This document shows positions 8,851-42,190 of a DNA stretch of 64,000 nucleotides, piece by piece. Within the stretch, counting starts at the first letter, position 1. Every line of letters starts with the position of its first letter. Location: contig OZ296648.1 in NCBI GenBank assembly GCA_965655095.1, positions 151,838,001 through 151,902,000 of the forward strand, given 5' to 3'. The notes beneath the pieces were generated by a model, which worked only from the letters and a program-made list of their open reading frames with translations, searched no databases and was not told the origin of the DNA. The DNA comes from Haplodiscus bocki (taxonomy: Eukaryota). The position numbers and the translations under genes are program-made.

Positions 8851-9279
8851 AATTGAGAAGGCTCGGGTGTCATCAAAACTTTTGCTACTTCGAACACAGC
8901 GGCTACACAGAACTTTGCAACACATTCTGGTCAACCAGCAGTGCACATCAAGGATCCTGAAAATCATCTGAAATCGTAATCGGAGACATGATTGACATAT
9001 TTAGAAAAAAATCAACAGCTGTCAATCAACTGTTTGTTAGAAAAATAGGAATTGAAACAAATACTTGTCTCAGTGTCCCATATTCAACAATTTGATCGGT
9101 CAATCATGTTTTTTAGGATACGCTATTCAACAGCTCAATGTATGAGAAATCTGCACATTTTACAACGCAAAGCCAAACAAATACCTGCCACATTGTCTTT
9201 TATTCGAAATGTTGGTATATCAAACATGACCTTTTAAGACGCCAATGCTAACCTTTTTCCAGCAAAAAGATACCACTTT

Positions 9280-11568: not shown

Positions 11569-13461
11569 TCACTCCTGGTAGCCAGGTCTTCTTCGACAAT
11601 CGCCATTTTCGTATACATCTTCGGTTTGACTTGGCTCAGCGTGTGAAACCGATTCTCTGCCGTAAAAATGAGATTCTCTTTGATTTTCGGTGCTCTGTGA
11701 ACCATGTCTGTGAATACTTTTGTGGCCATTCGACCTCCTGGAGGAATTGTGTGTTGAAGGATGGTGGATGGATCCCACTGAAGAGAAAGCACTGACAAGA
11801 CTTCCTCCAAAGATGAACATCATCATCAAAAACAAAGACAATAAAATAAATCCATCTTCTGAATGGAGAAACCACGAAACCCATTCAGGAATAGAAGCAA
11901 TGGCATCAAACACAGTCTCATAAATCTCAGCGGCTTTTTCAAAATACGGATTTGGGGCGTGTTCGTTTTGAAGAGTGGTGAATTTGGAATTGGTGGAAAG
12001 GCGCGTTCTACTAGATGCAACGTTGATGAGAAAGCTTTCAACGTTCTCGTAACTTTTCGGATCATTCCAATTCTGCCATTTGTAGTAAACGTCTCTATCT
12101 CCGACTCTTAAAATTGTCAAAAGCTGCGCTTTTCCGGAATCAACAAACCCGAGATGCGATAAAAATTCGGACTGAGCGCTGACTGGAGATATGTATCCAA
12201 AAGAAGTTCTTTCCAAATATGGCAGTTGAGGTTCCTTCATTTTTGAAATTTGTTCGGCATACGAAGAGACTTCTTCGAAGACTGGATGGACAAGAATGGC
12301 GCAATACTTCCGATTACTTATTGACCTGACTGTTGGACAAAGATGATCAAAGATAACTTGATTAGACAAACGCGGGAATTCCACATGTTTGTATTTGTCC
12401 ACAAGCTGCGACGCTGTGCTATACGTCGGCGGCCGTAGCAGCATATCTTCGGGACCAGACTTTGAAGTAAACACAGAAAGATGTCCATTCAGACGCAAAT
12501 ATTCGTCTTTGTTTCCAGTGAACGAGCTTGATAAAATGTAAGCAAAGTTATGGGTTTGGTGGTTAGCAAACGACAATGTGTTAAACCATTTGGACACTTG
12601 TTTTTCCGTAACGAAGTACACAATCAAGGGTTTATTGTCGATAGCGATGTTTGATAGAACATTATTTAATTCACCTGTACTCTTCAATTCTTGTATCATG
12701 TGTTTAGGTACATGACTGAACATAAATTGTTCAATATTTGACAGAGACCATTCCTTCATATTATACAACCGGTGTTTGCCTTTTATGACAACCATAACTG
12801 AAGGTACTCTGGTGATTCCAAGTTTGTAAACCAAAGATCGGTCAACGTCTGCATCAGTTGTTGCGAACTTGACGCCCTTTTCCTTGTATGTTTTGTAAAG
12901 TTGGTCGAACATTTTTCGCACTATTTTACAGTTTCCACACCAATCTGAGTATGCAAAAATTAGATAAACATGTCTGTAACTTTCAGGGATGACTCCATTC
13001 TCGTAAACGTGTCTGTTTATAAGCAGCTCATCAGGTTCGGAGTCAAAAAACGAAGAGAAAGGACCTCCTCGGAACCCACCAGGGCCCCCACGTCCTTCGT
13101 TAGTTCGGAAAAACGAAAAAGGGAACGGGAATCCAAACCCGCCGCCTTCATGGCCTTGACGAGGTCTGTCATCAGTGGTGCCAAACCTGTCGTAATCTCG
13201 TCTTTTATCGTCATCAGTTAGAATTTCGTAAGCTTTGTTGATTTCAATAAACCTCGCCTCTGCGTCCGGACTTCTGTTTTTATCTGGGTGCCATTCCCTG
13301 GCTAATTTCTTGTACGCTTTCTTAATTTCCTGACCAGTAGCTTGACGACTCACCCCCAATACGTCATAAGGATTGAATGCTTCCAATAAAAGTACACACA
13401 ATGTCAAGATCATCAAAAAGTGAACATAGATTGTACAAAATCTGTACTGAGTCGCGGCCAT
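11569..13461 (-). CDS. DNAJC16: DnaJ homolog subfamily C member 16 (ERdj8)-like, single exon, 630 aa
   Basis: Signal peptide, J domain with HPD, thioredoxin domain [19 protein letters not shown] motif and C-terminal TM helix [16 protein letters not shown]. Confidence 0.9.
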
Positions 13462-20499: not shown

Positions 20500-21713
20500 T
20501 AGATATTGAACTTGATCCATTTTATTATTTTTCGCCGTATATGAAATATACAAGAAAAATTATTCATTCAGTAGGGTCGTTTTTCTTTTTTTTATCTGAC
20601 CAAAAATGCCAACTTTTTATTCAAAAATAAATGGCAGCGGTAGGCTTAGGACAACAAGGTTCTCAAGCAGTAGGTTCGGGTCACTGCCCTGCCAAAATTT
20701 TTTACGATTTATCCCTAACATTTTTCGATACCCGCAATTAGTGAAATACTGAGGGGTTCCCCTACGAAAATTTTTGGCACTGTGAGACATAAAATTTCGT
20801 CAGAAAATCGTGACATAACCCTCTGAAGCATAAAATTTTTCGATACCCGAAATTAATGACACACTAAAGGATTCCCCTACGAAATTTTTCGGCACTGTGA
20901 GACAAAAAATTTTCGACAGAAAATTTTGACACTCCCACCCCCCTTCTTATCCAAAAACTTTTTCGCTACCAGAAACTTTCTGAAACACAGCACAGAAGGG
21001 TTCCTCTACGAAATGTTTCGGTACTGTGAGACAAAAAATTTTCGATAGAAAATCTTGATACTCCCCCCTTTTATCCATAAACTTTTTGGCTACCGGAAAT
21101 TTTCTGAAACACAGCACAGAAGGGTTCCCCTACGAAATTTTTCGGCACTGTGAGACAAAAAATTTTCGACAGAAAATTGTGATACTCCCTTCCTCCTCCT
21201 CCCCCTTCTTATCCATAGATTTTTTCGATACTAGAAATTTTGTGAAACACAGAAGGGTTCCCCTACGAAGTTTTTCGGTACTGTGAGACAACAAATTTTC
21301 TATAGAAAATCGTGATATTCCCCTCATAGGCATAAAATTTTTCGATACCCGAAATTAATGAAACCCTGAAGGGTTCCCCTACGAAAATTTTCGGCAGTGA
21401 GAAAAAGTTTTAGACGGAAAATCTTGATACCCTTCCCCTCTCTCTTATCCCTAACATTTTTAGAAAACAGAAATTTTCTGAAACACAGAAGGGTTGCTCG
21501 ACAAAATTTTTCGGCACTGTCAGACGAAAATTTTTCAAGGGAAAATCGTGATACCCTTTTGCATAAAGTACAGAAATCAGTGGTGTAATTGATTTGTAAA
21601 AACTCTTTGAAAACTAATATCAAAACAGTAGTTTTGTTTTTAACCGTTTGCAAAAATTGATCAAAATATTTGTAGTTGGGCGAAAAATAAGCCGGTGCTA
21701 GCCGGCCGTCTTG
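20500..21713 (+). mobile_element. Non-autonomous Helitron-like element with internal ~120-bp tandem array
   Basis: 3' hairpin gccgg-tgctag-ccggc (21691-21706) followed by cgtCTTG|T; homologous inverted copy at 61302-62560. Confidence 0.6.
20715..21560 (+). repeat. Tandem array, about 7 units of ~115-133 bp
   Basis: gg(c/t)actgtgagac-like motif at 20776, 20891, 21020, 21144, 21277, 21393 and 21513. Confidence 0.9.
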
Positions 21714-22250: not shown

Positions 22251-24266
22251 TTAATATCCATTCAGATCTTCATTTCTTAACCTTTCGTCCGCCAGAGACT
22301 TCCGCAAACTCTCCAACTCTGACAAATAATTACTTTCTTTCTCCTCAAATTCCTTTTTCTTCGCTACATGTGCCTCAGCAATCTTTTTCACCTTTTGTTT
22401 CATCAGACTTCTGTAATTGCGAATTTTTTGCTCGATTTCCATTTCGGACAATTGCTTCAAGTGCAAATCAGAAATCGTCTCATTTTTCTCATCAAGGAGT
22501 AACTTGATTTCGTGAGAATATGAATCGCGATCCTCTATTGCTTGTTCAGCTGCATCCAGGGCAGCCGATAACTGTTCACTCAACTTCTGTTCTTGTTCCT
22601 CAGCGTACAACAATTTTTTCTCCAAAAGAATCGCTTTTTCTTGCCACTTCCTCTGGGCCCGTACTATGGTTTCAACTCTTGAATGCATGTTATCCACTTC
22701 CTCGCGTCCAGACACCTTCTCTTCTTTTAGCCTTCGAGTTTCTAATTCAGATTTCTCAAGTTTTTCTAAAAGCACTTCGAAGTCAACCTTTGCTTGGTTT
22801 TTGAAATCGGTCAAATTTTTCTCGCTAGCTTCTAACGCCTCGTTGTGAGCTTTCAAAGCCACAAATTCAGTAGCACCTTCCGGTTCCAATCGCTTTTTGA
22901 GCACCAAAAACTTGTCACTCAATTCTTGGAACTCACATTCGTAGTAAGCTTTGTCAGCTTCGGCTGCCACTAATTTGCGAGTGAGTCGAGCAATTTCATG
23001 TTTATGAACCTCTAATTGCTGTTTCGATTTGTTTCTTTCCACATTTAATTGCTCAATTAGGATTTGATTTTCCTCTAAAACTAGTTTTGCCTGCTCTTTC
23101 ACGCGTTCCCATTCCCGGTCGTCGGTCGGCATCGAATTTGAAACATTCAGCAACTGGTTTTCTCGCAGAACTTCGTCCATGGAGTCTTTGAAATGCATCA
23201 CCCGGCGCTGCAGATCTCTCACTTCGACTTCTTTTTCATTCAGTCGGTCGTCAAAAGCCAATATTAAAGGGCTGAGGTACTGTGTACTTGTTAGCCAAGG
23301 TGGTTTGGCAACATTGAGAGGAATTCCGTTGTCATCGTTTGGCAAAGTTGTTCTGAACTTTTGCTGATAGCGGGCCAACTCTGTGTTGAGTCTTTCGATC
23401 ACTATTTTAAGATCTGAGTTCTCTTGGTCCAAAGAGCATCCATCTTTTCCACCTATTTTGGCCTTCCTTTTGTTCTTCGAATCCACCGAGTCACTCTGTC
23501 TGAGATCCACAATCGTTTTCTTGTACTCGTTTATTTCAGCCTGCAGATTCCCAATAACTGACTTCATATTCTGCATTGCGATTTCGCGTTCTCTCACTCT
23601 TGTTTGTAACTCTCCGTTCTTATGATGCAACACTTCCAGACGTTCCAAAACATTACGCAACTTGGCTTGCAATTCAGTATTGGTAGCTCCTACGCTATCT
23701 TTTTCCATTTTCTCCACGTAACCTAAGCCCCCGGGGTAACTCGGACTCATTAGCTTCTTCTCTTCAGAACAGACAGCAGAAGATTCGCGACTTTTCTTCA
23801 AACTGATTTGACTGATACGAGCATAATTTGACATTTGACTCTCATCCGCATTTTCCAAACTCAAAGGCACTGATGATGACGCAAGTAGATGACTGTTTTG
23901 CTCCTCAGCTTCGACTACAGATTCCAACACGCTCACTTCCTTGCCATCCGCGACGTCTGAAAGTATTGAATTTTCAACTTCTTCATACCCTTCACATCTA
24001 GACAAGGTTGAAAGTCTTGCATTTCCCCTTTCAGGAAGCTTCACGGTCTGGGTATTCATCCTTTCTGCTTGCCGACGTTGATCAGTTTCAAAGTCACCAG
24101 CCAAGAAGGAGCCAGTGACAAAGGAGCCTGCGTTAATTATAGCCAAGTGTATGGGGTTCCCATTTGTTTCTGTGTGTGGTAAATTGGGAGTTGCTGTGAA
24201 AATAAGTCTAGGCATCAGGGCATTGATGAAACGGAGATTTTCCGATGAGTTCTTCTTCTTTCCCAT
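22251..24266 (-). CDS. CEP89: Centrosomal protein of 89 kDa (CCDC123)-like, single coding exon, 671 aa
   Basis: PPWLTSTQYLSPLILAFDDRLNEKE and KEQAKLVLEENQILIEQL are CEP89 signature blocks within a long coiled coil. Start placed at ATG 24266 (MGKKK), 6 nt after a TTTTCAG; the upstream ORF extension reads like non-coding sequence. Confidence 0.85.
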   Translation of the reverse strand: MGKKKNSSENLRFINALMPRLIFTATPNLPHTETNGNPIHLAIINAGSFVTGSFLAGDFETDQRRQAERMNTQTVKLPERGNARLSTLSRCEGYEEVENSILSDVADGKEVSVLESVVEAEEQNSHLLASSSVPLSLENADESQMSNYARISQISLKKSRESSAVCSEEKKLMSPSYPGGLGYVEKMEKDSVGATNTELQAKLRNVLERLEVLHHKNGELQTRVREREIAMQNMKSVIGNLQAEINEYKKTIVDLRQSDSVDSKNKRKAKIGGKDGCSLDQENSDLKIVIERLNTELARYQQKFRTTLPNDDNGIPLNVAKPPWLTSTQYLSPLILAFDDRLNEKEVEVRDLQRRVMHFKDSMDEVLRENQLLNVSNSMPTDDREWERVKEQAKLVLEENQILIEQLNVERNKSKQQLEVHKHEIARLTRKLVAAEADKAYYECEFQELSDKFLVLKKRLEPEGATEFVALKAHNEALEASEKNLTDFKNQAKVDFEVLLEKLEKSELETRRLKEEKVSGREEVDNMHSRVETIVRAQRKWQEKAILLEKKLLYAEEQEQKLSEQLSAALDAAEQAIEDRDSYSHEIKLLLDEKNETISDLHLKQLSEMEIEQKIRNYRSLMKQKVKKIAEAHVAKKKEFEEKESNYLSELESLRKSLADERLRNEDLNGY

Positions 24267-24810
24267 ATTGATCTGAAAAAAAATCGTAGACATATAATTT
24301 TGAAAGTTTAAAGGACAGTTGTATTTTTTTGAAAGAGAGCCTGAGTGCAATTTGGCACTAAGTAAATTCCGTTGAAAATCAAAGCAGAAAGAAAAAGGCA
24401 ACATTGAAATCTCTGGAAAAACTACCAAATTTGGCAAGTGCCAGATTGAACAGTTGCCTTCTGGAGTATAGCTGGTAATTATATAACTAATTCGAAATGG
24501 CTAGCTGAGCTAAGTATACATGTAATTTTGAATGACACTGTAAGCCGAACATTTTGTTCACATAAATGAAACAGTAAAATAGTATCATTAAATAAAAACC
24601 AACGATTTAGACATTTTTCAATTTCTTATTCGAGAAATATTTCACAAAAAATGATTGCATAAAAATGAAATGACAAATTCTAAATTATGGAATCATTGCG
24701 CAAACAAGAACTCCAAAAAACCGAAAAAAAGGCATCACATCTATCAGATCAGGCAATTCATCTCTCCAAATCCAAAATCCGCAGCCGAAAAAAAAACACT
24801 TTTCCCATAT

Positions 24811-27633
24811 TCAAGATGCACCTGCAACTTCCAGAAGTTGCTGGCTGGGGGCTGATTTATTAGCAATACATTTATAAAAATCAGCCACTGATAAACATTT
24901 TGTTTCAGACTTCACTGAACAGCTCTCACTTTCGGCGAAAATGTAAAACTGAGCATTGCAAATTTCAGCTTCAGAAGCGTCTGTCAAGTTACCATCATAT
25001 GCAATGATGTACCTTTCAAGAGCACATGAGACGTCTTTTGAAAGGTGAGGCGATAACGCAAAACAACAACCTGACAAGAAACTGGGCAATGTCACACCAT
25101 TTTTTTGACTGTTATTGCTGACATTATTAATTTCAATTGAGCTAGTTGAAGGCTCATCATCAGCAATGCCGTAGTCTGCGACAACTTTTCTGCTTTGAAT
25201 CTGTGTAGAATAAGTGTGATTTTGCCTCGAATGATAGTAGACAAGTGTTTTAACATTTTTGGATATGAAATGCTTCTTCAAAAGTCTTTCCGCACAATAC
25301 CAGTTGAAGGTCTTCATGGAATGCCCCAAACGAGGGGAGTGAATAACAGAGGTATACCCGGCGGCCCTCTGCTTCTTGCAGAACTGGGCAATTACCTCAA
25401 AAGCAGAGTCCAGAACTGTAACATCTATATCTCCAATAACCCCTTTGTTTGACCGTTTCTGTGCTACAATCAGGGCAACGTATCTTCCTACTTTATCACC
25501 TGACTGTGTGTCGTCTTCTTTGATGGGCACAACATGCACATCTCCAAATGTCAGGTCTTTCATGTCGGATGCCAGCTTATACCTCAATGACACGTCAGCA
25601 GACAATTTATTCAAAGCAGAGAATACTCCACCTTCGCCCCACTGACCAGTATTGTCCACACAATGAATAATTATAGCTTGCTCTTGATTTCCATGAGAAA
25701 TAGGTTTAGTAACATCTCCTGCAACGTAGTTGAGAGTCAAACACTCGCCATCTTCTTCCTGTGACGTCATCAAATCAGGCTCTTCATTTGACGCAAAGAG
25801 ACTAGTTGAGTCGCCCATAATTAGTTTCAAGCTTTCGTACTCGTTTTCTGCCCATAGTTTTTCCAGGCGTAACCTTCGAGCTTCTTGGCGCTTCAGAGCA
25901 TTTTCAGCATCTAGTTTTGCTTTCTTGGCAAGAATTTCATCAATTTCTTCTTGAGAAGTGATTCTTTTGCTAGTTTTTACTCTAGGTCCCAGCACCTGGT
26001 TAGAATTGGATTGAGATTCAACCACTTTCTGTTCCTGCACTTCTTCGACTAACTTCTGCACTGCCTTATCAGAAAGCTTCATTCTATTTTTATAGTTTTC
26101 GCCTTCAAAGTCATACATATCTTGCGCTGAAGCGACTCCGTTTTTACTATTTTTGACAGCAGAAGTTTCATTCATTTTTACCGTCTTCACGGCCCATTCC
26201 CCACTTTCATCTGTGGCGCCCAAAACATCTTCTAAAACCACGTCCAGATCATCAGTATTGTCTACGTCACTCAAAATCTTCTCCAGCCCAAACTTGACAG
26301 CTTCACCCATTTTTTCAACATCAGCGTTCGCAGCAGTATATGAGGGATTGTCTTCAAGACCTCGCAAATCCCCGGTATCCAAGATGCTGCACGAAAGTTG
26401 TAGCTTCTTCGTAGCCCGATCAATAATGATTTCCTCAATTGAATCTTTACAAACTAATCGAATAATTTTGACTGGCTTGGTTTGACCAATTCTGTGAGAT
26501 CTCGCTGCTGCCTGAATGTCATTTTGAGGGTTGAAATCACAGTCCATGAAAATTACAGTATCCGCACTGGTTAAAGTGATTCCTTGACCTCCTGCTTTGG
26601 TACTCAGCAGAAAAACGAAAGTTGATTCTTTAGAGTTGAAGTTTTTGATAGATAGAAATCGCTCTTGGCTTCGACATGAGCCGTCAAGGCGTTCGTAAGC
26701 GAAACATCTGTACTCTAAGTAGTCCTGCATTATGTCCAACATAGATGTGAATTGTGAAAATACCAAAACTTTGTGCTTTTTTTCCTTGAGGAAATCCAAC
26801 ATTTGGTCCAGAAGCGTCAATTTCTGGCTAGTATGGATCAAATGGTCACCAGCCTGGAATGGTTCCGGTTCTATACCCTGGAATAAATAAGGATGCAAAC
26901 AGCACTTTCTGAGTTGGCATAAGATATTATTCAGAGATGACTTTTTTGGCATCCCTTGCGAAGCCAAGGTACTTAGAAGTTCCGAATCCTTCAACAATAT
27001 CGTCTTGTATAACTTTTTCTGAAGAGCCGTCAAACCATGGAAGATAATAAGTTCAGATTTTGGCGGTAAATTAATATTAACATCTTTTTTTGTTCTTCGC
27101 AACACATAGTTTTTCAAAATTTTTGTGAGTCCTTCAGTTGGCGTGCCATTTCTTTCAGCTGAATGCTTCGCAACGAACGATTCCAAGTTTTTCAAGGGGA
27201 AACTTCTATTGTCTACCAGAGCAAGAAGACTATACAATTCACGCAGGTTATTTTGAATAGGAGTTCCCGTCATCAACACTATATGAGCAAATGTGAGATC
27301 CTTTATCAAAATTTCATACAGCATACTCTCAGAGTTCTTCACACGATGCGCTTCGTCTATCACGATGACATCCCAGCTGAAATCTGCAAACTCTACATCG
27401 TTCAAGACAGTCTCATAATTAGATGCCACTAAGCGTGAAGCTGAGGTGACACGTTTCAGAGAATTGTAAAGACGGGTGCGCTCATCTTTTGATCCCCGAA
27501 GAATCGTCACACAGTCAGAGAAAACTTCAATCAATTTTGTCTCCGATGACCATGTATCCAAAACTGACAAGGGACAAAGTATGAGAACATTAATCCTTTT
27601 CTTCTCCAACAATTTTTCCAGAAATGATAGGAC
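24811..27633 (-). CDS. CHD1L: CHD1L/ALC1 chromatin remodeller, exon 2 (SNF2 ATPase remainder, macro domain, BRCT-like tail)
   Basis: Acceptor ttttcttgacag|GTC at 27633; DEAH, TGTPIQNNL, LLSTKAGGQG and QAAARSHRIGQ motifs; macro domain YVAGDVT..HCVDNTGQWGEGGVFSAL..WYCAERLL. Confidence 0.93.
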   Translation of the reverse strand, partial: VLSFLEKLLEKKRINVLILCPLSVLDTWSSETKLIEVFSDCVTILRGSKDERTRLYNSLKRVTSASRLVASNYETVLNDVEFADFSWDVIVIDEAHRVKNSESMLYEILIKDLTFAHIVLMTGTPIQNNLRELYSLLALVDNRSFPLKNLESFVAKHSAERNGTPTEGLTKILKNYVLRRTKKDVNINLPPKSELIIFHGLTALQKKLYKTILLKDSELLSTLASQGMPKKSSLNNILCQLRKCCLHPYLFQGIEPEPFQAGDHLIHTSQKLTLLDQMLDFLKEKKHKVLVFSQFTSMLDIMQDYLEYRCFAYERLDGSCRSQERFLSIKNFNSKESTFVFLLSTKAGGQGITLTSADTVIFMDCDFNPQNDIQAAARSHRIGQTKPVKIIRLVCKDSIEEIIIDRATKKLQLSCSILDTGDLRGLEDNPSYTAANADVEKMGEAVKFGLEKILSDVDNTDDLDVVLEDVLGATDESGEWAVKTVKMNETSAVKNSKNGVASAQDMYDFEGENYKNRMKLSDKAVQKLVEEVQEQKVVESQSNSNQVLGPRVKTSKRITSQEEIDEILAKKAKLDAENALKRQEARRLRLEKLWAENEYESLKLIMGDSTSLFASNEEPDLMTSQEEDGECLTLNYVAGDVTKPISHGNQEQAIIIHCVDNTGQWGEGGVFSALNKLSADVSLRYKLASDMKDLTFGDVHVVPIKEDDTQSGDKVGRYVALIVAQKRSNKGVIGDIDVTVLDSAFEVIAQFCKKQRAAGYTSVIHSPRLGHSMKTFNWYCAERLLKKHFISKNVKTLVYYHSRQNHTYSTQIQSRKVVADYGIADDEPSTSSIEINNVSNNSQKNGVTLPSFLSGCCFALSPHLSKDVSCALERYIIAYDGNLTDASEAEICNAQFYIFAESESCSVKSETKCLSVADFYKCIANKSAPSQQLLEVAGAS

Positions 27634-28699
27634 CTGTCAAGAAAAAACAGAGTCATCGGCGGTTTTTTTAGGAGGTCTCTACTTTGAAAGCACAAGGTGA
27701 AATAATGAAAAAAAATGATTGCTCAGCTTGAACCCAGCCACCCATGGGCCTTCGGGCAGGACGGGACTTCGGGAACGTTTTTTAAATTAGCTTCTCCCGT
27801 TCAGCACTTAGGTGATTTAACACTATGTCATGTCAATGACATTCTTGACCTGAACTTTGAAAGTATTTGAGAAGCCTGAGAGAGATACCTTATTAGAAAA
27901 CATAAAAACATGTTCATATCATATTTTGCTCGGTGTTGATAACTTAATCACTTTTCCCTAAGTTACCACAGTCACCGGTAGTAAGTTTCAATTGTCTATT
28001 TGGTAACCACGATACAATTTCAAAGCATTACCGCTCGAGTCATGATATGGTGGCAATTCAGTCGGATCGATTATCAGTGGCGTAAAAACGAATTCAAGCA
28101 TCGGAGTCAACAAAAGAATGCGGTGAATTCGAAGATGGCAATTTGATCTTACGAGATCTACCGTGTAAGAGGAGCGCCGAGACTGACTCATCGTCAAGTT
28201 TGGAAAACATCAGTATCCTGTATTTTTCAGGTATCAGCTGGTAGACATTAGTTGCTTAATGAGCTTTATTCGATGACCCCCACGTTGCGCCGCTACTCTG
28301 TAGAAAGATGGTCAGGCAAAGTAGCAGCAATCGACATATTGTTTGGGAGGACCAAAGATTGGCACTTATTGCCCAACTTTTTTCAAAATTTGTTCGAAAC
28401 AGTGCATCATTACTAGAAAGTACAAAAAAAAACAAACAAGTGGCTGGAGAAGAAACAGTTAGTCCAAATCTTCGATAATTCAAACAATTTCTGTGCTGGG
28501 GGTTGAACATTAGTATTGTAAACCTCTTCTACTGAACCAGGTCAGTTTTTGTTCAGCCCCTTCATTATTTCTGAAAACGAAAATAAAGTAACAAAGGAAG
28601 AAATAAATACAACGTACAGAAAGTCCAACGTTAAAAAAACTATTGCTGCAATATTTAACATCTCAAGTACAGTTTCTCAGGAAAGTTCGTTTCATTTCT

Positions 28700-30332: not shown

Positions 30333-30757
30333 TGTGAGGTCATGGCTCGGAGCGGTTGGCAAGGCAGATTTTTATACAATTCAGTAGTCATTTGATGTGA
30401 GTTCGGTTTTAAAATTTTGGTTTGAAATAAGATGCAACCGTGGATAACAAGAGTTTTCTCTAGGACGTTAACTCAAAGAAAAGAGATTGTTGGAGATTAA
30501 AGTAGTTTTACTATATAAAGGCGAAAAGAGCGCTGAACATATCTTTAATATTGAAGGCATAAGTGGAATGCACACGAAGTACCACTAGACTGGTTACTAA
30601 GTTAGTTATGCGGCTTGTTTCGTCTCAGAAATAATGCCTATAAGCTTTGATTCTCTGGTGATCTGGCTTGCTCTCATTGGCCCGTGACTGTGATTGGTCC
30701 AAGTGTTCTTTGGAATAGGTCGTTCATCTGATGCCGTTTCTTTGAGATATCATGACA
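30333..30757 (-). repeat. 3' LTR
   Basis: tgtga(g)gtcatgg...atcatgaca; homologous to 41754-42190; preceded on the minus strand by PPT-like gtgggtag (30758-30765). Confidence 0.9.
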
Positions 30758-30899: not shown

Positions 30900-32745
30900 T
30901 AGTACATAATGAGAAAAAGGAAAAGGAGCCTCGATTTGAAAACATGCTTGAGAAAAGAAGGACAGGAGGAAAAGAAGAGGGAGGGAGCTGAGCTTAAAGA
31001 GGAGAGGTGGCAAAAGCAAAGATGTAGTATGAGAGGCGGATGTCAATATTGAGAACCAAACCGGAGGTGTGCGAGAGTAAACGGTTGAAGGGATGCAAAT
31101 GAAACGAGGTCGGTAAAGTGGGACCTAAAGAGGGGCTGACTCAAAAGGGCGAGCCGAGAGTCAACACAAAACTGACATTGTCCGTGACCAAGGGGTCTAA
31201 AGTGGAAAAACGAAAGAGAAAGAGGAGGGAGGCATGTGACCAAAAGCAACATTCGAGTGGCTGAGAACGAGGAAAACGTTAGGCGAACGCTAATTAAAAG
31301 TTATAATTCCTGCGCAGGGGGTTGTTGAAAAGGGCGCATAGCGGAACGTGGAACTAGAATACTACGGTGGTTTCAGGGGCAAAAAGAGTCAATTTGAAAA
31401 TATGGGAAGGACTCGTCATCAACAGACATCACAGCGTGAAGGCGAATTTTAACTTGAAGTTTTTTAGATTTACGAGAAAAGGGCAAGAACTTATGAAGAT
31501 TTTATATCTATTAAAATTAAATATATCACAAAAACATGTAAAATCATTGAGATAACAAAACTACAGAAACGCATGACATAGGTGGTTTTGAGAGCTGAAC
31601 ACGGCAGCGGAACAGCTTCATAAATGGTCATGACAATTGTGCGTGAGGCCAAAGAAGTGTCAGCAGAAATTCAAGAAGCGTGAAAACATCTTGAAGGAGT
31701 TGGGCTTCGTAATATGAGAGAAAGTTATCGAAAAGGATCGCAAGAGTAAGGCGATCAGTGGCATAAAATTGTATATGCGCAACTTGTTCAAAAACTTGAT
31801 GGAATGAAGCTGAATTGAGAAAAGACATGCGAACGTAGTTACGGAGACGAGCAGGAATGCTGTTGAGCATATTAATATGGTAAGCAAAAAATGCTGCTCA
31901 AAAGGATTTCAGGTTGGCGTAAATGAGTGACAAAAGGGAAGAAACAGTATCGAAGTTGAAGTTTATTTGTTGGCGAGAAAAAAGCGACTGATCACAATTA
32001 CGCACAACATAAATATTGTCGCAAAGAGTTTCTAATTGATCTGCAAAATTACGTCAACTAGCCTTGTGAAGTTCTTGCATTCGTTGTTGTAGGCCTCGAA
32101 GAGAACGAAGTTCGTCACTAGCTATGAAAAAACATCTTGTTTCAGTTGCAACATTTTGAACGGCATCAAAATATCAGAGTTCATCCCGAAGAGAAGGGAG
32201 ATAGCATCTGCGTTATCATCGGCTCGGCAACTGCCAAAGATACCAGCAAGGCCACAAGAATTGGAGCGATATTTCCGGTGCCGAAAAGGTCAAGGGCACC
32301 AGCAGCAACGGCAGCCAAGGGAAGAGCATGGCGGGGATGAACAAAAATGAAAAGAACCTTAGGTTGAACAAGTAAAAAACGTTTCTCGTCTAAGTCGGTC
32401 AAGATCATGTTCCGCAGAGACAATTTCAGATTTGACTTCGTTAACCATCCGAAAGACCTTGAATCCGGCCATTGGTGAGATTGAGATAACAGAAAGAATT
32501 GGGCATTGTCCACATGGTGTCCAAGACTTCAGTGATATACTCAAGTTCAGATTTAGTCGATACTTCAACCATCGGAAAAAGTAAGAGAAACTGGACATCA
32601 ATAAAATTCTCAGCCAAAAGAATCTTTTTGGTCTAATGAAACATGAAGCCTTTTTTTGAGGTGAAAATTTGACGCATCATACGAAGAGATGAGCTTTTAC
32701 AAAGGTATCCGAAAAGGTAAAAGAATAGAAACAAAAACACCAAGC
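30900..32745 (-). pseudogene. env: env-like glycoprotein (class I fusion, F-type), frameshifted
   Basis: Hydrophobic N-terminus MLGVFVSILL (~32740); cleavage site and fusion peptide HPRH|ALPLAAVAAGALDLFGTG (~32340-32275); heptad region; hydrophobic TM-like segment near 31000; located immediately before PPT/3' LTR. Confidence 0.65.
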
Positions 32746-33644
32746 ATTCCAATGCTACAATGGTGCTACAATGGTTTCTCATTCATAAAATGATATTCAG
32801 AATATGAAATTCGGAGGGAAGAAATAACGAAAGTCGCAGGTTTCGAAGCTATTCAGGGCTCAAATGAGAGAGTGAATGGCACAAATAAGTCGAGGCGTGA
32901 TTGTTGGGTCAATAAAAGAATTATTGAAGAATCACACCATTCTGGAAAGTGTTTATTATTGTTCGAAAGCTATTTGTTTTAGTTGTGCTTAAGCTAAATG
33001 TTATAGTTGCTTCGTGCAAACAAGCGACAAGTTCATCATACTACAAGTACTAGACTGTTGGGAAACCAAGTGAGTCCAATTGAAAAGAGTTCCTGAGCGT
33101 TTCAGAGTCTTGTTTACTGCAAAAAAAAGGAAAAAGAAGACAGCCGAAGGAAAAGAGGAAAAACAGGAAGAAGAAAAGAATGGGCAGCCATACGTCTCCT
33201 TCAAGCCCGAAAGAGATCCTGCTTAACCTCTTTGGCCATCGAAGGAGGCAAGAGACCCTTACGGTTCGATAGTAGCTACAGAAGTCATTACAGTAGCAAA
33301 AGTCGTTATGTATCCGGCAATGTTCACAGTCCAATATTACAGAAAGAAGAAACATACAGTAGTAGAGTAGAAAGACGTAGAAGACCAAGACTCAGATCTA
33401 AAGACATATTCTCCTGAGTGCGTTAAAGCTGATGAGCCTGGTTTAGCGTGTTGTCGTAGTTATGTATATCATGTAGTTATGTAAAACTTTAAAAGTCCAG
33501 GTAACTGATAGTTAACTCGTTGTAGTGTAGAAAAAACAAAAACATGCAAAAAAATAGCTAGCAGAAAAGCTTTTTACGTGAAGATCGAAAAAGTGTAGAG
33601 CAGTGTGCCATATGTCAAATGTTGCATTACGTGTGCTATTTCAG

Positions 33645-34855
33645 ATTTCGAAATCATGGATAAAGTCTTGCGAGAAGCCAGTGAAAAGTATCTGCGAGAA
33701 AGGTACATCAATAGGGGGACCTGAAAAATTCAGAGAAAGTAAAAACCTAAAAGTTTTGTCAGAATCTGTCGCTGGTGGTTGACGTATTGATGTACAAAGG
33801 AAGACTAGCAGGACCCAAAGTAGTACCAACACCTGAGCAAGTTTTTGATCTTGTGTGGTGCTCACGTGGGAGTGACAGGGAAGCACTCGAAAGATGTACA
33901 GGAGCAGGTTGGGGGTGCTTAGCAAGACTGGGATGTCGTATCCATGAGCCTGGGCGGTTTGGAAGCCTTAGTCAGAGAGTAAGTCATATCGAATGATATA
34001 AAGTAATAGAAGGGATATTCCAATGAAAAATAATTAAACATACATGCAACAGAGTCATATGTTCTTTCAGATACATGAGGAACCGTCAAATCTGGTATTT
34101 CAAGGACGTAGCAGGGAAAAAACAACCTTATGTACATGGGACAACGATGAAGCGCCAGGAGCTGTGCCAGAGGTTCGACTATCCTTGCTACTGGGAAGTG
34201 ACGTTGACAAATCAGTCTCGACGCTGGTGTGCTCGAGAGCCAAAGAAGAAGCCTGCTGTGGTAAAACTATCTGAAGTAGGAGGTGAAAGCTGGCTTTCGA
34301 GCACTTATTATCTCCTAGTGGGACAAAAAACAGGTAAAACTTGACAAGAAAGGAAAAAACAAAAGTAGCAAGAAAGCATAAGACAAAAATGAATGATGTT
34401 GCATAGACAAAGTTTCGGATGCATCAAAGAACAAGAGGTTGCGTGAAGCAACAGCAGAAGTGATGCCGACGGCTGAGTTCGAAGAGTTCTGTCGCAAGGA
34501 GATGGGGAGTGCACCGAATGACTTCATCATCCGGGAGTACACCCGTACAACAGCAGCAGTGACTGGGAAGAGGGTTAATAAAATGTCCATAGGATAAAGC
34601 ACAAATTTAGAAGAGCGACTGGAAAAACTCTGAAAAGCTATTTAATTGCAGATTTTTGAGACAGCATGCATACTGGGAGCCAACATCTTTAAGTACTGGC
34701 AGTACTGGAACGGTGGAGGTAGGGTGCGATATCGGCACGCAGCTACCAAAAGTGGGCGGGGAAGCACTTTCCTGTGTCATGAGATGTAAGGAGGCCTCAC
34801 CAAAAACAGATCGTTCCATTGCGAGCCCATACCGGACGTTCCAGAGATTGAGTTA
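33645..34855 (+). pseudogene. Spliced antisense accessory gene inside the Gypsy element (exons 33645-33978, 34071-34333, 34407-34573, 34652-~34855)
   Basis: GT-AG introns 33979-34070 and 34334-34406 join exons in frame (GLEALVRE|YMRNR.., GQKT|DKVSD..); further candidate introns 33501-33644 and 34574-34651; first exon resembles an integrase zinc-binding N-terminal domain. Confidence 0.55.
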
Positions 34856-35987
34856 GTCGAAGATGTCAGAAAAATGAACTGCACGATAAAAGACATTAAG
34901 AGGGACGTTTTATTAGGAGTGCACCACCAATGTCCAAAAGATCCTCACTGCACCCTCTGATGAAGCAGAAGAACGAGAAGAGGCGCCAGGACCAAGTACA
35001 GCCAGTCTCTCAGAGTTAGTGTGAAGAAGAAAAGTTTAAATTGTAAGATATCGGAAAAGCAACTGTTTCGTAACCAAAAATAGGTAAAAAAAAACCGAAG
35101 TCTTCATAGGTGGAAAAGGATTTTAAAAAAAGCGCATAGGGCATCATAGGTCACGCTTGAACTCGTTGAGACGCCATCAGAAACGAAAAAGTGGCAAGAA
35201 ATAGACTTTCGGCTAAAAAAAAGCGATTTCAGGAGAGGCTCCAATATGTCCCGCAGAAAGCAGTATGTTGATAATGGCATGAACCGACAGCTATATGCCT
35301 ACAAACAATAAACCACGCCATTTCGGTGGTGCAAACGAAACTCCGACAAACTCATAGGAATTCAGGAGCCTATGAGAGGTATGGAGGTTGAGGACCAAAA
35401 AACGGAAAAATGAAAAAAAATTGAAGCAGGGTAAATGAAGATATGGGTAGCAACGGAAGGAAGGAAGAATGCCAGAGAAACGCCTACAAGGCGCAGAAAG
35501 TGCAAAAAAAGGATTGATGACTGAAATTCGCAAAAAACACCAGAAGAGGCATGAAAAAATAGAAGAAAAAGAGGCAAAAGCGAATTTTCCCACGTTTTAG
35601 AATGAAGAAATGAGGCTTCACGAAGTTTCTGACGTAGACCTAGACGACAGGAGCTGGAATGAGTACCAGTGGTAGGCGGTGGAGCCATCGGTAAGTGCAT
35701 GTTTTCATCATACCAGAAGGAGATGCACGAACGGCATCTGCAACAATATAGGGAGCCAGCATGGTGGGGGTGGTCAGGCTCAAGGCACAAATTCGAGGCC
35801 TCTACAGGTGCAGAAGAGTTGAGAGAAACATAGCTTGACGCAAGAAGGTGTGGTAAACACGTTTGAGCCCCTCAAAGGTAGAAATCTAAGTGAAGGCGAC
35901 GGAACGCAAAAAGCTGTCAAAAAAGGAGGAAAGGAAGTTACTGGGTGGGTAGGGGTGAGCCTAGAAAGGGAAGAAGGCGTACAAGGC

Positions 35988-38900
35988 CTAGGAATGCGGG
36001 AAGATGGGGGAACAAGAGAAGTTCCCAGTTGTGAAGAGGGGTTTGACAAGGTACCAAAGGAACAAAAGAATCCGACAAAACCGAAGGATCAGAAGAGGAA
36101 GAAGTACAGGGATAGAGACACGGTTACGTGCTCGTTCCACAAAGGATTCAGAAAATCCTGAAAAGGTGGATGATGAAGATCCCCATTGAGACGGAGGGTA
36201 AATTTGAGGAGTATAAATGAAAATCGACGTAGAATGACAACTAGGTGTCGTCGCAACAGTATAAATAAGCGTTGAGGGTGTGTGGGCTGCAGCGACAGTC
36301 AATACGTTGGAAGAATCAAATGAGGCTTCTGAAAGTCTACGGCCTGCTGAATCGTCCGTTAAAAAGCGTACATTCGTCAAAGATAGGGGTGAAGACTCGG
36401 TGTCAGAAAACGTGTCAGGAGGTGAAAGAGGGTCAGAATCAAATGCAGCTAAAATTGGGGCAACTGATTGTGGGGTAACCTGAGCACGAGGTGGGGATGG
36501 CGCTACTAAGCGAAGTGCCATGCGGAGTGGCACGTAGCGCAAAAGAACATTAGGTTGATTAGATGGTTCAACTTCAGGGGAAAAAGTTGTATCAGTGAGA
36601 AGATCAGGTAAAGCATGGTCAAAAACGGCGAGTTCAGAACAATTTCTGGTAATAGGGTCAGGTTGAAAAACCAGAGGGTTAAAGCCAGAAAAGTCTTCCA
36701 CTGAGTATTGGGGTGTGATAGGCCGTAACCTAATGCAATGGGATACTGAGCGAAGAGTGTGCCAACTTCACGAATAATATAATTCGAATTTGTTAGGACT
36801 TGTCCAATACGGTAGTGGCAACCATTTAGTCAGGGATTCACCCATATGTTCATTGACATTCGATAGTTTCGGATTCAGGAGTATTTAAAAACAGTGCTTT
36901 TTGAGAGTAAGAGCTATCCCGTCATGAGACTGTCGTTATTAGCTGTACACGGAAACCGTGGTATCTCATGAATACTTCATTCATGCGATCTTGTAAAGAA
37001 CTAATGAATTCATATCGCGTTTGTAAGTTTTGTTTCATTTTCTCGTGGAAACGAAGATCTAAGGGAGTAATTGGTAGTCGACCAGGGAAGACAAAAATAG
37101 CAGTACACCCTATAGAAGTTAGTAGGAAGTTTTGTTCAGAAAAACTGCAAAATCGACATAGTTATGCCAATCGCGTTTCATATGATTCTCGTAGATACCA
37201 AGATACTGTTTGAGAGACGCCTGAGTGCGCTCACATAACCTATTAGTCTCTGGGTGCTTGACAGTGGCATAATCAATGTCAACTTCAAGAATTTCACAAA
37301 GACGAGCAGTAAAAGCGGTGCCCATATCCGAAAGAAAGATCTTATGCATACGGGACGTTCGAATGAAAACCTGGAAAAGCTGCTTAGCGCCATTGGAAGC
37401 ACCGGCGTTGCGCACGGGAACGGTGAGAACGTACTTCGAAAAGACATCTTTTGCGGTTAAAATCAAGGTGAAACCTGCCGATTCTGGTAACCTGCCAACT
37501 AAATCGATTTGAAGCATGTCACCAAAGAAATGCTTATCCGTGGCGAGAGAAAGAAACGGGGGTTTGGGTGTTCCATGTTTCACCGGTTTCATTTGCAAGT
37601 CTGAATGGCGGTTTTTGATGTAATTCGTAAGGTATTCAACAAAATTCAAGAAGTAGAAACGTTGTCTAAACAGTTCCGCTGTTTTGGCAATACCATTTTG
37701 ACCGGCATAAGTACTGTTGTGTACCCGATAAAGGAGTTCTTGTCGCATGTGGGCTGGGACCACATTTTGCCGTGTAACATTGCCCCCTGTATGGTCAAAA
37801 AAATCCGATAGAGCACTCCATGGTGACATTCAAGACGTGTAAAATGTTCAAGAAATTTGAAAAATTCGCTATTCCAATGAGCCGAAGAAGGAGGTAGTAC
37901 TTTTTCTATCCACTCAGTGAATTGCATAATATTCAGATCTTTCTGCTGTTCAATCTGCCATTGGATCGCAGTCAGGCAGTCCGTTGATTTTATGACTATC
38001 CAATGGGTTAGGAACATGCAGTGCATTCAAAGAGTACAATACTCGCAAGTTCATGATGTCAATAGGACTTCAGTCATGACGCATGTCATTAATGGAGTCT
38101 TCGGAGACTTGTATTCTCATTCGTAAGGACACATCACGCGTGGGAAGTTTCGAGTTATTGCGCTATTCAAGCTTGTGTGCGGATGTATATGTTGCGTGAC
38201 AAGTAGTCAGCGGCGGCAACTCCTTTGCCTTGAATGTGAAGGAGGACAAAGTTGAAAATCAAGACATGATCGACACATGTCCAAAAACTAAAAGGAATCC
38301 TTTCAGTTAAGACAAGTACTGGCTTTGAGCTTCCCCATAGAACATGGGGGTAAATATCAAAAGCGAAATGTAAGGCCAAAAACTCTTTGAAGTATAATGA
38401 CAGTTTCCAGTAAATTGTGAAGATTAGAAGCTTCTATGCATCTATGATGTTCATCCGTAAGTTGCAATTCGGCATTGTTTCGAAGGAGTTGCGAAGAAGG
38501 TAGGAGTTTTCCTCCTATTTTCGGGATGAAGGAAGGTACTGGAAAAATCCGACGAAGCGTCGAATCTGCTTCGGGCTTTTTGGAACTTCAAGAGTCTAAA
38601 GGAAATGAGAAACTTTCGTTTTATTCCGAGACATGCTTTCGGTAGTAATTGCAAAACCGAGGAATGTCATTTTGCCTTCAATCCAAATTCACATTTCGAA
38701 GGTGTCAATTTAAGTCATGAATCATTCAATTTTTCAAGGCATGTAAAAACTGCTTTAAGGTTGTCAAAAAACTTCAAACGTAGCGGCGGCAGCACTTAAA
38801 TCATCTACATACTGGTCTGCAACTATGCAAGGATATATTTACTTTTAAAGAAAAGCTGAAAACACAGAACGGCTAAAACACTACGCGAGACGTAAGTACG

Positions 38901-40360
38901 CAAACGTTCCTGAAAGCAAGTAAAAAAATTTGGACAGAAGGAGAGTCAGCCAACTGAAGCACACGATGGGCTTGACTAGAGTCTAGTTTAGCGAAGAACT
39001 TTTTCCCAGCAAGATGTGCGTTAACATAAGCTAAGGTAGCGATAGGAAATTTATGATTGTCGTAAACGAGGCGAATAAGTAGTGAATTCGTCGAAGATCA
39101 ACTGAAAGACGTAATTTTCCAGAGGGTTTATGGACGGCAAAAATGGGACTCCAGTATTTCGAGTAGGTGAGAGTGGTGATAATTCCCCAGTATTGCAAAA
39201 GTGCAAGTTCAACAAGAATTTCATCACGATAATGTATTGGTGTCGGTGGACCTTGTGTATACATTGCGTCCGAGTTTTCCGGAGTGATTTGCACCTTGAC
39301 ATGTTTGTTCGCACCTATGTCAAGGGGATGACGCGCAACAATATGGTAAAATCTTATAAAAAAGGTCTTCCACGGTTCAATTCTATGTAACATTGAAGAC
39401 AGAATTCTCCAAGGAAATTGTTTCAGGAATTGTTGTCTATCTTCTTCAGATTTTAGGGGATTCAATGTTTCTTGTGACTTGAGTTTAGAAAGTTCACCGT
39501 AGATCCTATGATTAATTTCTGTAACGAGTTCAGGAGTTTTACAATTTTCCGGCGTACGAAACCAAAGAATCGTTACCCGGATAGACCTTGGTTTCCGAAT
39601 CAGCTATTAAATAATTCAGTTGTTCATTAAAGGATCTAGTCTAGAGTGCAGGATTCACTGGTTGTAGGTACGTAGCTAGTTTCGGTGTAAGGATCGCTAT
39701 TCGAGCGGCTTGAGAGTTTCTGGATTAAGTGATGTTATGTGGCATAACGTTCAAAACACCTAGCGAACTTTTGTCTTCGTCTCATTTTACAAAAGCCCTT
39801 GTGATACAGAGACCTGTATCTTTTTCAAATTCAGGGCTCTGTTGTACTAAAGCAACTGTACGTTCAGGGAAGGTACTGTGCTGCAAACAGTAAGAAAAAA
39901 CTGAAGAACTCGGTTTTATGGTCAGAGAAAGATTAGAATAAAAAAGAGGTTCTTTCTCGAACTAAGCCAACTAATTTTTCTATCACAGTGTAGACGCTCA
40001 AATATTTGTAGAGTTAGATTAGGCAACTTAAGAGTAAGTGTTTTCGGGTGAACAGCAATGTCGTTATGTTCAAAAAATGGCAGACCTAAAATGGTCTGAT
40101 TCACAGTCTTAAGAATGAAAAATTCTCAGTAAAAGTTTCATTAGCTATAGAAAATCGCGAAGAGTTTCAGAGGTGGGGACAGCAGCATCATTGCCTACTT
40201 TGAAACTGCTCTGTTGGGCACAAAATTGAGATATAGCAGAAGGATACAGGCGTTTGGGTTTCTGAAAATTTTTTTAAGGCATGGCGCTGGAAAAGGCACC
40301 AGTATCTACAAGAGCCTTTATTGGAAACGAAAAAGTTATCGCTATACAGAAACGAAAACT
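35988..40360 (-). pseudogene. pol: Gypsy pol (protease, RT, RNase H, integrase, long S/P/T-rich C-terminal tail), multiply disrupted
   Basis: RALVDTGAFSSA (protease); WSPIFAVHKPSGKLRLSVDLRRI (RT); AADYLSR (RNase H end); LQIDLVG..SDMGTAFT..HPETNRLCER (integrase); IRLRP running into ORF 35988..36701. Confidence 0.9.
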
Positions 40361-40449: not shown

Positions 40450-41621
40450 TTCATCTGTTGTTGATTTTACATCGGTTGTGGCATCATCTGTTGATGCGGC
40501 AACATCTGAAATTGTGATTGATTGTAAGGTGAAACATCTTGATAGGGTAAAGGTGGAACTGCGCGGTACGTCTGACTAAACCAACAATTAGCGGGTATAA
40601 GACCAAAATTGTTGCAAATATTGCAATGACTACGAACCGATTGTGCGCGGTACTGATTCTGGTTATTGTTTCGGAAATTGGAGTTTCGGGGCGCCAATTC
40701 TGTTGATTATTTTGTGAAATTTGCTGAAAATGTCGGCAGCGCTGATGATGGTTTCCACGTGGATCAAAACTGCGAGGACCAATGTTGATTCTGTTGAAAT
40801 TATTATTTCCATTGTTGTTATTGTTTTTGCGTCTCTGCTGGCTATCATTTTGATTATTGGGTCGATTGTTGTTTCCAAGCTGGTTGATGGAAGATTCTGA
40901 GAGGGTTTTGCTGATTTTCTCTAGTTCATCCGTAATCTTTGACATTCCTTGTTGGAACTTGTTTTGGGCTTTCGTCAATTCTTCGATTCCGGCGAAGAAA
41001 ATTTTTCATGACTCATCTGGAATTTCATTAAATGCTGTGTCATCATCTTCAAGACAGAGCCGAGCTACTATCATTTGACTAGCTGCTTTGGCACAAAAGT
41101 CATCTATTGTTGAATTTTTGCGTTGTCAGGAGAAATCGATTAAGTTTCAATGGCATTCCGTTGATGAATGCTTCTCGAATTCGGCGGTTTCTTTCTTGTT
41201 CTCTGTTTTCTGCAAGCAGGGCTGGGCGACCTCCTGCAGCTTCTAGTGCCTTTATATTTGAGTATGCTTCCAGCGCCAGGCGTTGCAAGTCTGTAAAAAA
41301 ATCCTGAGCACTTTCATCTGAGGCTTTAATCTTTCTGGACTGGAAGAGTAGTTTCTGCAAGTGCACACGCTGATCATCTCTGTAGCGCTCTCGGAGAGCT
41401 GTTATTGCATTGGCGTAATCGGTGCGGGTAGTTTCTGGTAGTTGGTCCAAATATGTCACTGCACCTCCTTTGAGGTGAAGATGTAGATATGTATGGCGGT
41501 CTGCATCAGCAATTCCAGCAACATCAATGCAACTATTGAGTTGTCGTATGACTTCTTCAAAATTTTCTTTTTCAGTGCCTTTACAAGGCTGTAAAATCAC
41601 AAATGGTTGTATGGCGGCCAT
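40450..41621 (-). pseudogene. gag: Gypsy gag with Asn/Gln-rich region and decayed CCHC knuckle
   Basis: ORF 41100..41621 (LHLHLKGGAVTYL..ESAQDFFTDLQRLALEAY..IREAFING) and CNICNNFGLIPANC near 40620. Confidence 0.85.
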
Positions 41622-41734
41622 AACTTCAAATGAAGTAGAAAAGTGAAAGTAAAGATGAAGAAATTTGTTTTAGAATTGCGTGGCTGTGAGAATGGCGAGT
41701 GTTCGTGGTTTCCGATGTTCAGGAGTTAACAAGA

Positions 41735-41753: not shown

Positions 41754-42190
41754 TGTGATGTCATGGCTCGCAGCGGTGGCAAAGCAGAATTTTATACAAT
41801 TCAGTAGTCATTTGTGGTGCTTTCAGTTTGAAAATTATGGTTTGAATTTAGATGCAATCGTTGATTACAACAGTTTTCCCTAGAAAGTTAACTCGAAGAA
41901 AATAGATTGTTGGAGACAGAAATAGTTCTACAAAATAAAAGCGAAAAGGTTGCTGAACATATCTCAATTAATGAAGGCATAAGTAAAATGCACTAGAAGT
42001 ACCACTAGACTGGTTACTAAGTTAGTTATGCGGCTTGTGTGGTCTCAGAAAGGTTGTTTTAAAATCTTTGATTCTTTGGTGATCTGGCTTCCTCTCATTG
42101 GCCCGTGACTGTGATTGGTCCACGTCTTCTTCGGAATAGGTCGTTCATCTGTTGCTGCTTCTTTGACATATCTTGGTGAATATCATGACA
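41754..42190 (-). repeat. 5' LTR
   Basis: Homologous to 30333-30757, visibly diverged (roughly 15% by eye), so an old insertion. Confidence 0.9.

Follow-up and report, generated by a model that had tools for sequence, protein, structure and literature searches.

The window analysed here, 64,000 nucleotides of Haplodiscus bocki DNA, carries a degraded Gypsy element on its minus strand and, on the opposite strand of that element, the remnant of a gene with five predicted introns (Table 1). The element is ordered gag, pol, antisense gene and env, and its pol remnants follow the same order (protease, reverse transcriptase, RNase H, integrase) that Pfam finds in a young relative. Pfam gave no match with the env fragment 32181-32528. 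Young relatives of the element have LTRs that are 94.6-100% identical, with 5-bp target duplications readable in three of the five examined; in the youngest elements the LTRs are 99.4-100% identical and gag (449 codons), pol (1957-1979) and env (806-809) are open. The env ORF of young relatives (806 aa) has a signal-like start, a hydrophobic peptide after the motif RQRR and, at the C-terminus, another hydrophobic stretch; searches of Pfam and of PDB sequences with it, in which homology to F-type or gB-type fusogens was sought, returned nothing significant. These elements are env-carrying Ty3/Gypsy elements and would count as errantiviruses in the broad sense.

Table 1. Features of the Gypsy element and of its antisense gene, in window positions.
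Feature	Position	Strand	Remarks
3′ LTR	30333..30754	-	85.3% identity to 5′ LTR over 423 nt
env remnant	31600..33000	-	degraded, approximate ends; 44% identical (aa) to env of young relatives (806-aa ORF)
Small antisense ORF remnant with hydrophobic, likely transmembrane stretch	33227..33367	+	open stretch; ORFs of 95-106 aa at this place in young relatives
Predicted intron 0 (5′ untranslated)	33501..33644	+	close copies: GT 7/7, AG 6/7
Coding exon 1, ATG 33656	33645..33978	+	reading frame shifted in this copy; two conserved His in an integrase N-terminal-like module
Predicted intron 1, phase 2	33979..34070	+	young loci: exact GT 30/35, AG 35/37
Coding exon 2	34071..34333	+	CxxC, linker, start of OTU-like domain; Ser at putative catalytic Cys here
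Predicted intron 2, phase 1	34334..34406	+	young loci: exact GT 24/31, AG 24/29
Coding exon 3	34407..34573	+	OTU-like domain, helical part
Predicted intron 3, phase 0	34574..34651	+	young loci: exact GT 33/36, AG 34/37
Coding exon 4	34652..34851	+	OTU-like beta part with conserved His; premature TAA 34787-34789 here
Predicted intron 4, phase 2	34852..34919	+	close copies: GT 6/7, AG 7/7; young loci: exact GT 37/38
Coding exon 5, short tail	34920..35012	+	stop column 35010: stop in 6/8 copies, none in the window copy
AATAAA, candidate polyadenylation signal	35307..35312	+	
pol, integrase part	37119..37829	-	Pfam Integrase_H2C2 E 8.8e-9, rve E 3.9e-6
pol, reverse transcriptase part	38400..39603	-	degraded, approximate ends
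gag, N-terminal part	41100..41669	-	
5′ LTR	41754..42175	-	pairs with 3′ LTR 30333-30754

Other features were observed in the elements and in the window. In most young elements the C-terminus of pol (L113:8691-9140) is formed by a macrodomain that closely resembles human OARD1/TARG1 (PDB E 5e-22), with no match in the window family or in four distant copies of the element; it represents a second enzyme acting on protein tags in young elements, beside the protease predicted below. Residues 216-298 of L113:3204-9140, between protease and reverse transcriptase, gave a weak dUTPase match (Pfam E 0.037, below cut-off). Elsewhere in the window, positions 22251-27636 (minus strand) hold two long uninterrupted host-like ORFs, one of 941 codons for an SNF2-type helicase with a macro-like tail, which we take to be CHD1L-like, and one of 749 codons for a coiled-coil protein. 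Two inverted arrays of a repeat of ~125 nt are found ~40 kb apart (20500-21570 and 61500-62550).

The Antisense Gene and Its Decay in the Window Copy

Four GT-AG introns (introns 0 to 3 of Table 1, the last as a possibility) had originally been predicted on the strand opposite to the element, together with an ATG following the first acceptor and two junctions (GLEALVRE/YMRNRQIWYF and VGQKT/DKVSDASKN) at which the flanking exons join in frame. All of these are found in the sequence as described, the first intron thus lying upstream of the coding start, but the set was incomplete, as intron 4 and the short fifth coding exon had been overlooked. The exons of the window copy have a GC content of 46-54% and its introns of 28-35%, and a YAG is found at most 16 nt before the ATG in 32/35 young loci (a count without a computed background).

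For exon 1, "about three" frameshifts had been noted in this old copy; relative to the columns common to the copies it carries four frame-shifting indels and one codon loss. Exon 2 contains a compensated -2/-1 indel pair and exon 5 a 4-nt loss. The window copy of the antisense gene is dead, and the gene is broken in all seven close sisters too. The GT-AG pair of intron 2 is present as predicted, but its acceptor at 34406 is a sub-lineage variant and not the site of the six other close copies, in which the frame is kept only from an acceptor located 4 nt upstream, with its CAG intact in five of them. In the window copy and in the sister copy L002 this usual CAG is lost, and a common 1-nt insertion fits a TAG 4 nt downstream, which, read from these two copies, looks like a compensated splice shift. 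Intron 0 is conserved as strongly as the exons. Contigs from four sequencing runs of one study (kind not stated) contain joints at 33805-33953 and 34214-34432, neither of them at a predicted intron, and are evidence neither way. A profile of the small membrane ORF matched sister copies weakly (E 0.0007-0.26) and did not match the window copy.

Copies and Position of the Gene in the Genome

A DNA search with the segment returned nine matches, namely the window itself, a partial duplicate located beside L002 and seven independent copies with an identity of 74-89%. Part of the antisense gene region is duplicated in the closest sister (G000:C1:136129135-136133445; L002, L003). The location first proposed for the gene, antisense to an env-bearing Gypsy element and between its pol and env, is found in close, distant and young copies: the segment lies between pol-side sequence and env in 7/7 close copies, gene order and orientation are unchanged in the four distant copies (30-60% aa identity in pol), and at 26 of 29 young loci with flanks the gene lies antisense between an integrase and an env that share one strand. 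At the other three young loci env adjoins the gene, integrase being absent from the stretch read. Protein searches yielded at least 145 matches with exon 4 (150/172 candidates scored) and at least 150 with exon 1 (150/255 candidates scored), and the figure of ~150 exon-matching loci is therefore a lower bound. Neither a stand-alone host gene nor a Ginger1 donor was seen among the 29 young loci (of ~150 matches), all of which have env or pol parts adjoining the gene. A separate insertion absent from sister copies, the alternative raised together with the original prediction, is contradicted by the sister and distant copies, which hold the segment at the same place; the antisense gene is shown to be part of the element across the lineage and not an insertion.

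When the exon 1 profile was compared with 1.84 billion representative proteins, 24 proteins were found, and the ten clusters checked were unnamed ENA records. Some of these matches correspond to copies in the present genome. However, the best identity of one of them, P0020 (8 members), in the present genome is only 37%, so that relatives of the antisense gene likely exist in another genome.

Evidence for a Spliced Gene Under Selection

In the eight old copies, i.e., the window copy and its seven sisters, columns common to at least five copies give intron phases 2, 1, 0 and 2. Over the 354 codons of the spliced frame, no column has a stop as its commonest codon, whereas the 11 other frames, spliced or not, contain 8-24 stops each. 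Two further tests on these copies carry less weight. The splice dinucleotides are kept in 5-7 of the 7 close copies, but 35-43% of all plus-strand GT/AG dinucleotides are kept in at least 6/7, and this high background makes the close-copy splice test weak. Similarly, the shared-versus-private comparison of pN/pS in the old family (0.51 vs 0.84, p 0.016) proves little, because the control, in which the introns were pooled and read in one frame, gave a comparable shared value (0.48, p 0.005), which is itself probably due to chance among the many frames tested, although intron 0 is no less conserved than the exons.

Among young relatives, exact GT/AG is found at 217/243 homologous splice positions, against 7% nearby; two near-duplicate loci were dropped from this count, in which related copies are not independent. 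In a scan of 41 young loci (10 duplicates dropped), all seven tested sites were present at 16; nine of these also have an open frame throughout exons 1-4, and 32 of the 41 were not scored open. As this search imposed the phases, what it can tell is limited to site presence and stop counts. Pairs of young copies that belong to the same cassette type (see below) have dN/dS values of 0.15-0.24 where at least 17 synonymous differences are available, and of 0.05-0.27 over all 10 pairs. Between types, synonymous sites have reached saturation (pS 0.73-0.87); pN is 0.29-0.37, and the identities at the three codon positions are ~0.6/0.7/0.4. The substitution patterns of the young copies show that they are under purifying selection.

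The proposal that this lineage has its own multi-exon antisense accessory gene is supported by the splice positions, by the open frame and by purifying selection in young copies, the very place where conserved splice dinucleotides and an open spliced frame had been asked for. Almost certainly the element once had a functional protein-coding gene here, whose own transcript, antisense to the element, is predicted to undergo splicing. That it would instead be a passenger, whether a nested Ginger-like transposon, a host gene fragment without function or a chance GT-AG chain, can be given hardly any credence: its domain order and introns do recall Ginger1 (PMC2836005), and none of the eight old copies is intact, but the position is fixed across the lineage, no DDE core is present, and the open frames, conserved splice positions and dN/dS values of young copies largely refute this reading.

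The Predicted Protein

The product of the gene is likely an integrase N-terminal-like HHCC zinc module fused to an OTU-like cysteine protease, i.e., an accessory deubiquitinase, as judged from conserved residues, profiles and models. The predicted zinc module shows the pattern H-x6-H-x35-C-x2-C, in which the two His are conserved in 34/37 and 36/38 rows and the two Cys in 35/38 and 32/37 rows. With a structural model of the N-terminal part (pLDDT 65), the top three of 48,161 chains were the integrase N-terminal domains of PFV, Ty3 and MLV, these matches being weak and below the trust level of the tool (Z 4.6/4.2/4.0, rmsd 3.7/4.9/4.3, 81/93/89 aligned). Foldseek with the same model found nothing significant, Ty3 integrase occupying ranks 2 and 7, and the antisense profile did not match the N-terminus of the element's own integrase (score 17.1; controls up to 17.7).

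For the C-terminal half, a 38-row profile was aligned with the set of OTU domains of the present genome using hhalign, giving a probability of 88%, an E-value of 3e-6 and a score of 46.4, while 20 reversed or shuffled controls scored at most 19.5. This match stems from one OTU subgroup only, borne by a Helitron-like element. A Cys conserved in 31/37 rows lies ahead of the first helix and is aligned with the catalytic Cys of the OTUs; a His conserved in 34/36 rows and followed by x-Glu, as in the L057-type OTU, was matched by eye to the place expected for the catalytic His, beyond the hhalign-aligned range. The Asp that precedes the Cys by three residues in the other OTUs of the genome is replaced by Gly in the antisense protein. 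A model of the OTU half was poor (pLDDT 45, introns read through): OTU domains made up 32/39 rows listed by Foldseek, the best with E 0.27 and none significant, and a wide VIA fold search with it returned generic helical bundles and one OTU at rank 24 (Z 3.2). Pfam on single exons and read-through sequence found neither OTU nor Integrase_H2C2, Pfam gave no rve match in the antisense gene, and PDB sequence searches with the antisense protein gave nothing significant. Word-indexed protein searches for longer relatives yielded none, which is weak evidence, and one ESM Atlas query gave no usable match. An OTU fold of the C-terminal half is, in our judgment, very probable, and an active deconjugase that aids the element is slightly favored over its contrary.

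In a rival reading, the accessory gene is real and its OTU-like domain acts as a ubiquitin-binding decoy or as a protease with another substrate, e.g., the element polyprotein. The altered motif before the Cys, the lack of a Pfam OTU match and the Ser that the window copy, L018 and L151 have instead of the putative catalytic Cys would fit this possibility. However, the window copy and L018 are decayed, and the Cys and His are kept in the above proportions across synonymous-saturated types, beyond what a pure decoy would need. We consider this reading unlikely, the deubiquitinase being preferred.

An Exchangeable Cassette Between pol and env

The pol-env gap of young elements measures ~3.5 kb and includes a 3.2-kb cassette that contains the antisense gene, a small antisense ORF for a membrane protein and a sense ORF. 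The small antisense ORF (95-106 aa) has a signal-like start, a conserved Cys and a transmembrane-like stretch; both hydrophobic ends, or nearly so, are present in 7/8 elements, and one lacks the signal. The sense ORF (~94-132 aa; L115:8564-8845, minus strand) lies between the membrane ORF and exon 1, is intact in 6/8 elements, shares 49-81% identity among types and has no match in the window family. Two young elements with 99-100% identity elsewhere have strongly different membrane ORFs (L115:7930-8247), which is a swap within the cassette.

The cassettes fall into at least six types, deeply divergent from one another but carried on backbones that are more than 90% identical. Comparison of 19 well-covered elements gave 77 pairs with at least 90% identity in integrase and at least 88% in env; the antisense proteins of these pairs are less than 70% identical in 61 cases and at least 85% identical in 16. 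In 9/9 elements of other types, DNA similarity to one young element breaks off at 9086-9154, no more than 54 nt from the pol stop (9140), and returns at 12288-12470, 140-325 nt before env (frame from 12613); in two elements of the same type it runs uninterrupted across the cassette. Integrase pS is 0.11-0.17 whatever the cassette type. The tree of antisense proteins consists of six tight clades supported at 100/100 and six long single rows, and the integrase tree of 22 young rows, a quick tree, is one open fork, shallow and unresolved. No contrast between cassette and backbone is seen at the DNA level in the old family.

The coexistence of many types on one backbone, the integrase-NTD-like module and the variation of the membrane ORF even between otherwise nearly identical elements could also point to a self-regulator or exclusion factor. 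An integrase-NTD mimic would bind integrase or cDNA of the same or competing types and limit them, or antisense RNA would tune silencing, diversity then reflecting competition among elements and not host defence; regulatory roles have been proposed for plant antisense ORFs (PMC7264820). This explanation leaves the conservation of the OTU-type Cys and His without a reason, a role of the RNA only is ruled out by codon-level selection, and we regard it as quite improbable compared with an exchangeable accessory deubiquitinase.

Two other observations concern the cassette. L176 (G000:C4:20207600-20217599) carries a mosaic cassette, in which a 640-nt block 88% identical to one type lies beside a gene of another type. 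A window-wide repeat scan (40-nt minimum) listed no terminal inverted repeats at the antisense gene.

Comparison With Known Systems and Possible Origin

HBZ of HTLV-1 is a spliced antisense gene with one intron that encodes a bZIP regulator near the 3′ LTR. The present gene is likewise an antisense gene of an env-bearing retroelement that would be spliced by the host, its splicing being predicted. Differently from HBZ, it lies between pol and env and encodes a zinc-module/OTU-like fusion without bZIP, none being detected by Pfam on intact exons 1-4. The parallel with HBZ that had been drawn at the outset holds for the layout but does not extend to homology. The antisense promoter of HBZ is cited in PMC7264820.

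Antisense extra ORFs have been described in plant Gypsy elements, including Retand TRP28, Grande gene23 and RIRE2, and their products have no known function (PMC11963269, PMC7264820). Grande gene23 has its own antisense promoter, and PMC7264820 calls for a search for antisense spliced transcripts, the word "intron" being absent from that paper. As in the present elements, conserved coding sequence runs antisense in the plant elements in the interval from pol to the 3′ LTR (PMC11963269, PMC7264820). The plant elements differ, as described there, in carrying no env-type ORFs at that place, whereas the present gene has five introns, an enzyme-like domain and exchangeable types.

Metazoan errantiviruses combine Ty3/Gypsy gag-pol with a downstream env that has a signal peptide, a basic cleavage site, a hydrophobic peptide and a transmembrane segment (PMC13524379), and the present elements share this organization, with similar env features. 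Outside insects, the survey accepted no more than 1,000 nt between pol and env, and 10 kb in all, and "antisense" and "accessory" are absent from its main text (PMC13524379). With a gap of ~3.5 kb, the present elements would have been excluded by this filter, as it is described there. Modular extra ORFs are also found in other invertebrate LTR elements, the bdelloid LTR retrotransposons, whose ORF3s encode enzymes and small transmembrane proteins common to several retroelement types (PMC5408684). The bdelloid enzymes, however, are GDSL esterases and DEDDy exonucleases, and PMC5408684 mentions no introns or antisense ORFs. In full-text searches, which cover few subscription papers, no multi-intron antisense gene or OTU accessory gene of an LTR retrotransposon was found.

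Cys/His OTU-like domains on mobile elements are known from viruses (nairovirus OTU, PDB) and from Helitrons, where they are parts of long intronless polyproteins, whereas the present OTU-like domain belongs to a separate multi-exon gene. Several OTU-bearing Helitron-like families occur in the genome, and the closest OTU is the N-terminal one of a Helitron-like element (L191:417-8513, minus strand; probability 83%). The cut-and-paste element Ginger1 is described in PMC2836005 as having an N-terminal H2C2 zinc finger, a C-terminal OTU and 1-4 introns in its coding sequence. The antisense gene resembles it in its H2C2-type residues, OTU-like domain and introns, a comparison made by description and with modest domain scores. 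It differs from Ginger1, as described there, in having neither DDE core nor GPY/F, in its short distance of ~65 residues between the CxxC and the OTU Cys, and in its fixed antisense position within an LTR element. Of the 21 OTU matches of the genome, some of which were read with their complete flanks, none was seen to be linked to an integrase. Descent from a Ginger1-like gene that lost its core has, to our mind, a little less than an even chance; that an integrase N-terminus was joined to a Helitron OTU and that introns were gained later is a more tentative scenario.

Proposed Mechanism and Significance

Introns are expected to be purged from retroelements. The packaged RNA, however, is the strand opposite to the antisense gene, and introns antisense to it are never spliced from it and thus survive reverse transcription; moreover, co-packaged retroelement genomes recombine. 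In the mechanism that we propose, an antisense transcript from the integrated element would be spliced and translated into a protein of ~350 aa, the zinc module of which would bring the enzyme to DNA or to the integrase complex of the element. The OTU domain would free element proteins or host silencing factors of ubiquitin or a related tag. Template switching between genomes packaged together would allow the exchange of cassette types, and host counter-pressure would keep many of them in circulation. We assign a probability of roughly 0.55 to the whole reading, according to which the window would hold a dead copy of a spliced antisense gene encoding an exchangeable accessory deubiquitinase. 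The HHCC module with the OTU-like protease, the two further accessory ORFs and the exchangeable cassette go beyond what had been noted before at this locus.

A more far-reaching possibility, which we put forward with reserve, is that the 3.2-kb cassette is a counter-defence hotspot. It would combine an integrase-docking deubiquitinase having antisense-protected introns with a variable membrane protein and a third ORF, and its ancient allelic types would be reshuffled onto one active backbone by recombination and maintained by host-driven balancing selection.

The lineage keeps a selected five-intron gene, at no fewer than about 150 loci, by placing it antisense. Antisense extra ORFs have so far been without assignable function (PMC7264820, PMC11963269), and the present gene provides an enzyme prediction that can be tested. 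It also bears on the open suggestion, made in PMC2836005, that OTU and Ulp1 domains aid transposition. Deep cassette types on one backbone constitute a natural experiment in host-element conflict. Given the pol-env gap filter described in PMC13524379, complex errantiviruses may have been overlooked elsewhere. If the gene is spliced and its product enzymatic as predicted, the element would be a retrotransposon with a virus-like accessory enzyme.
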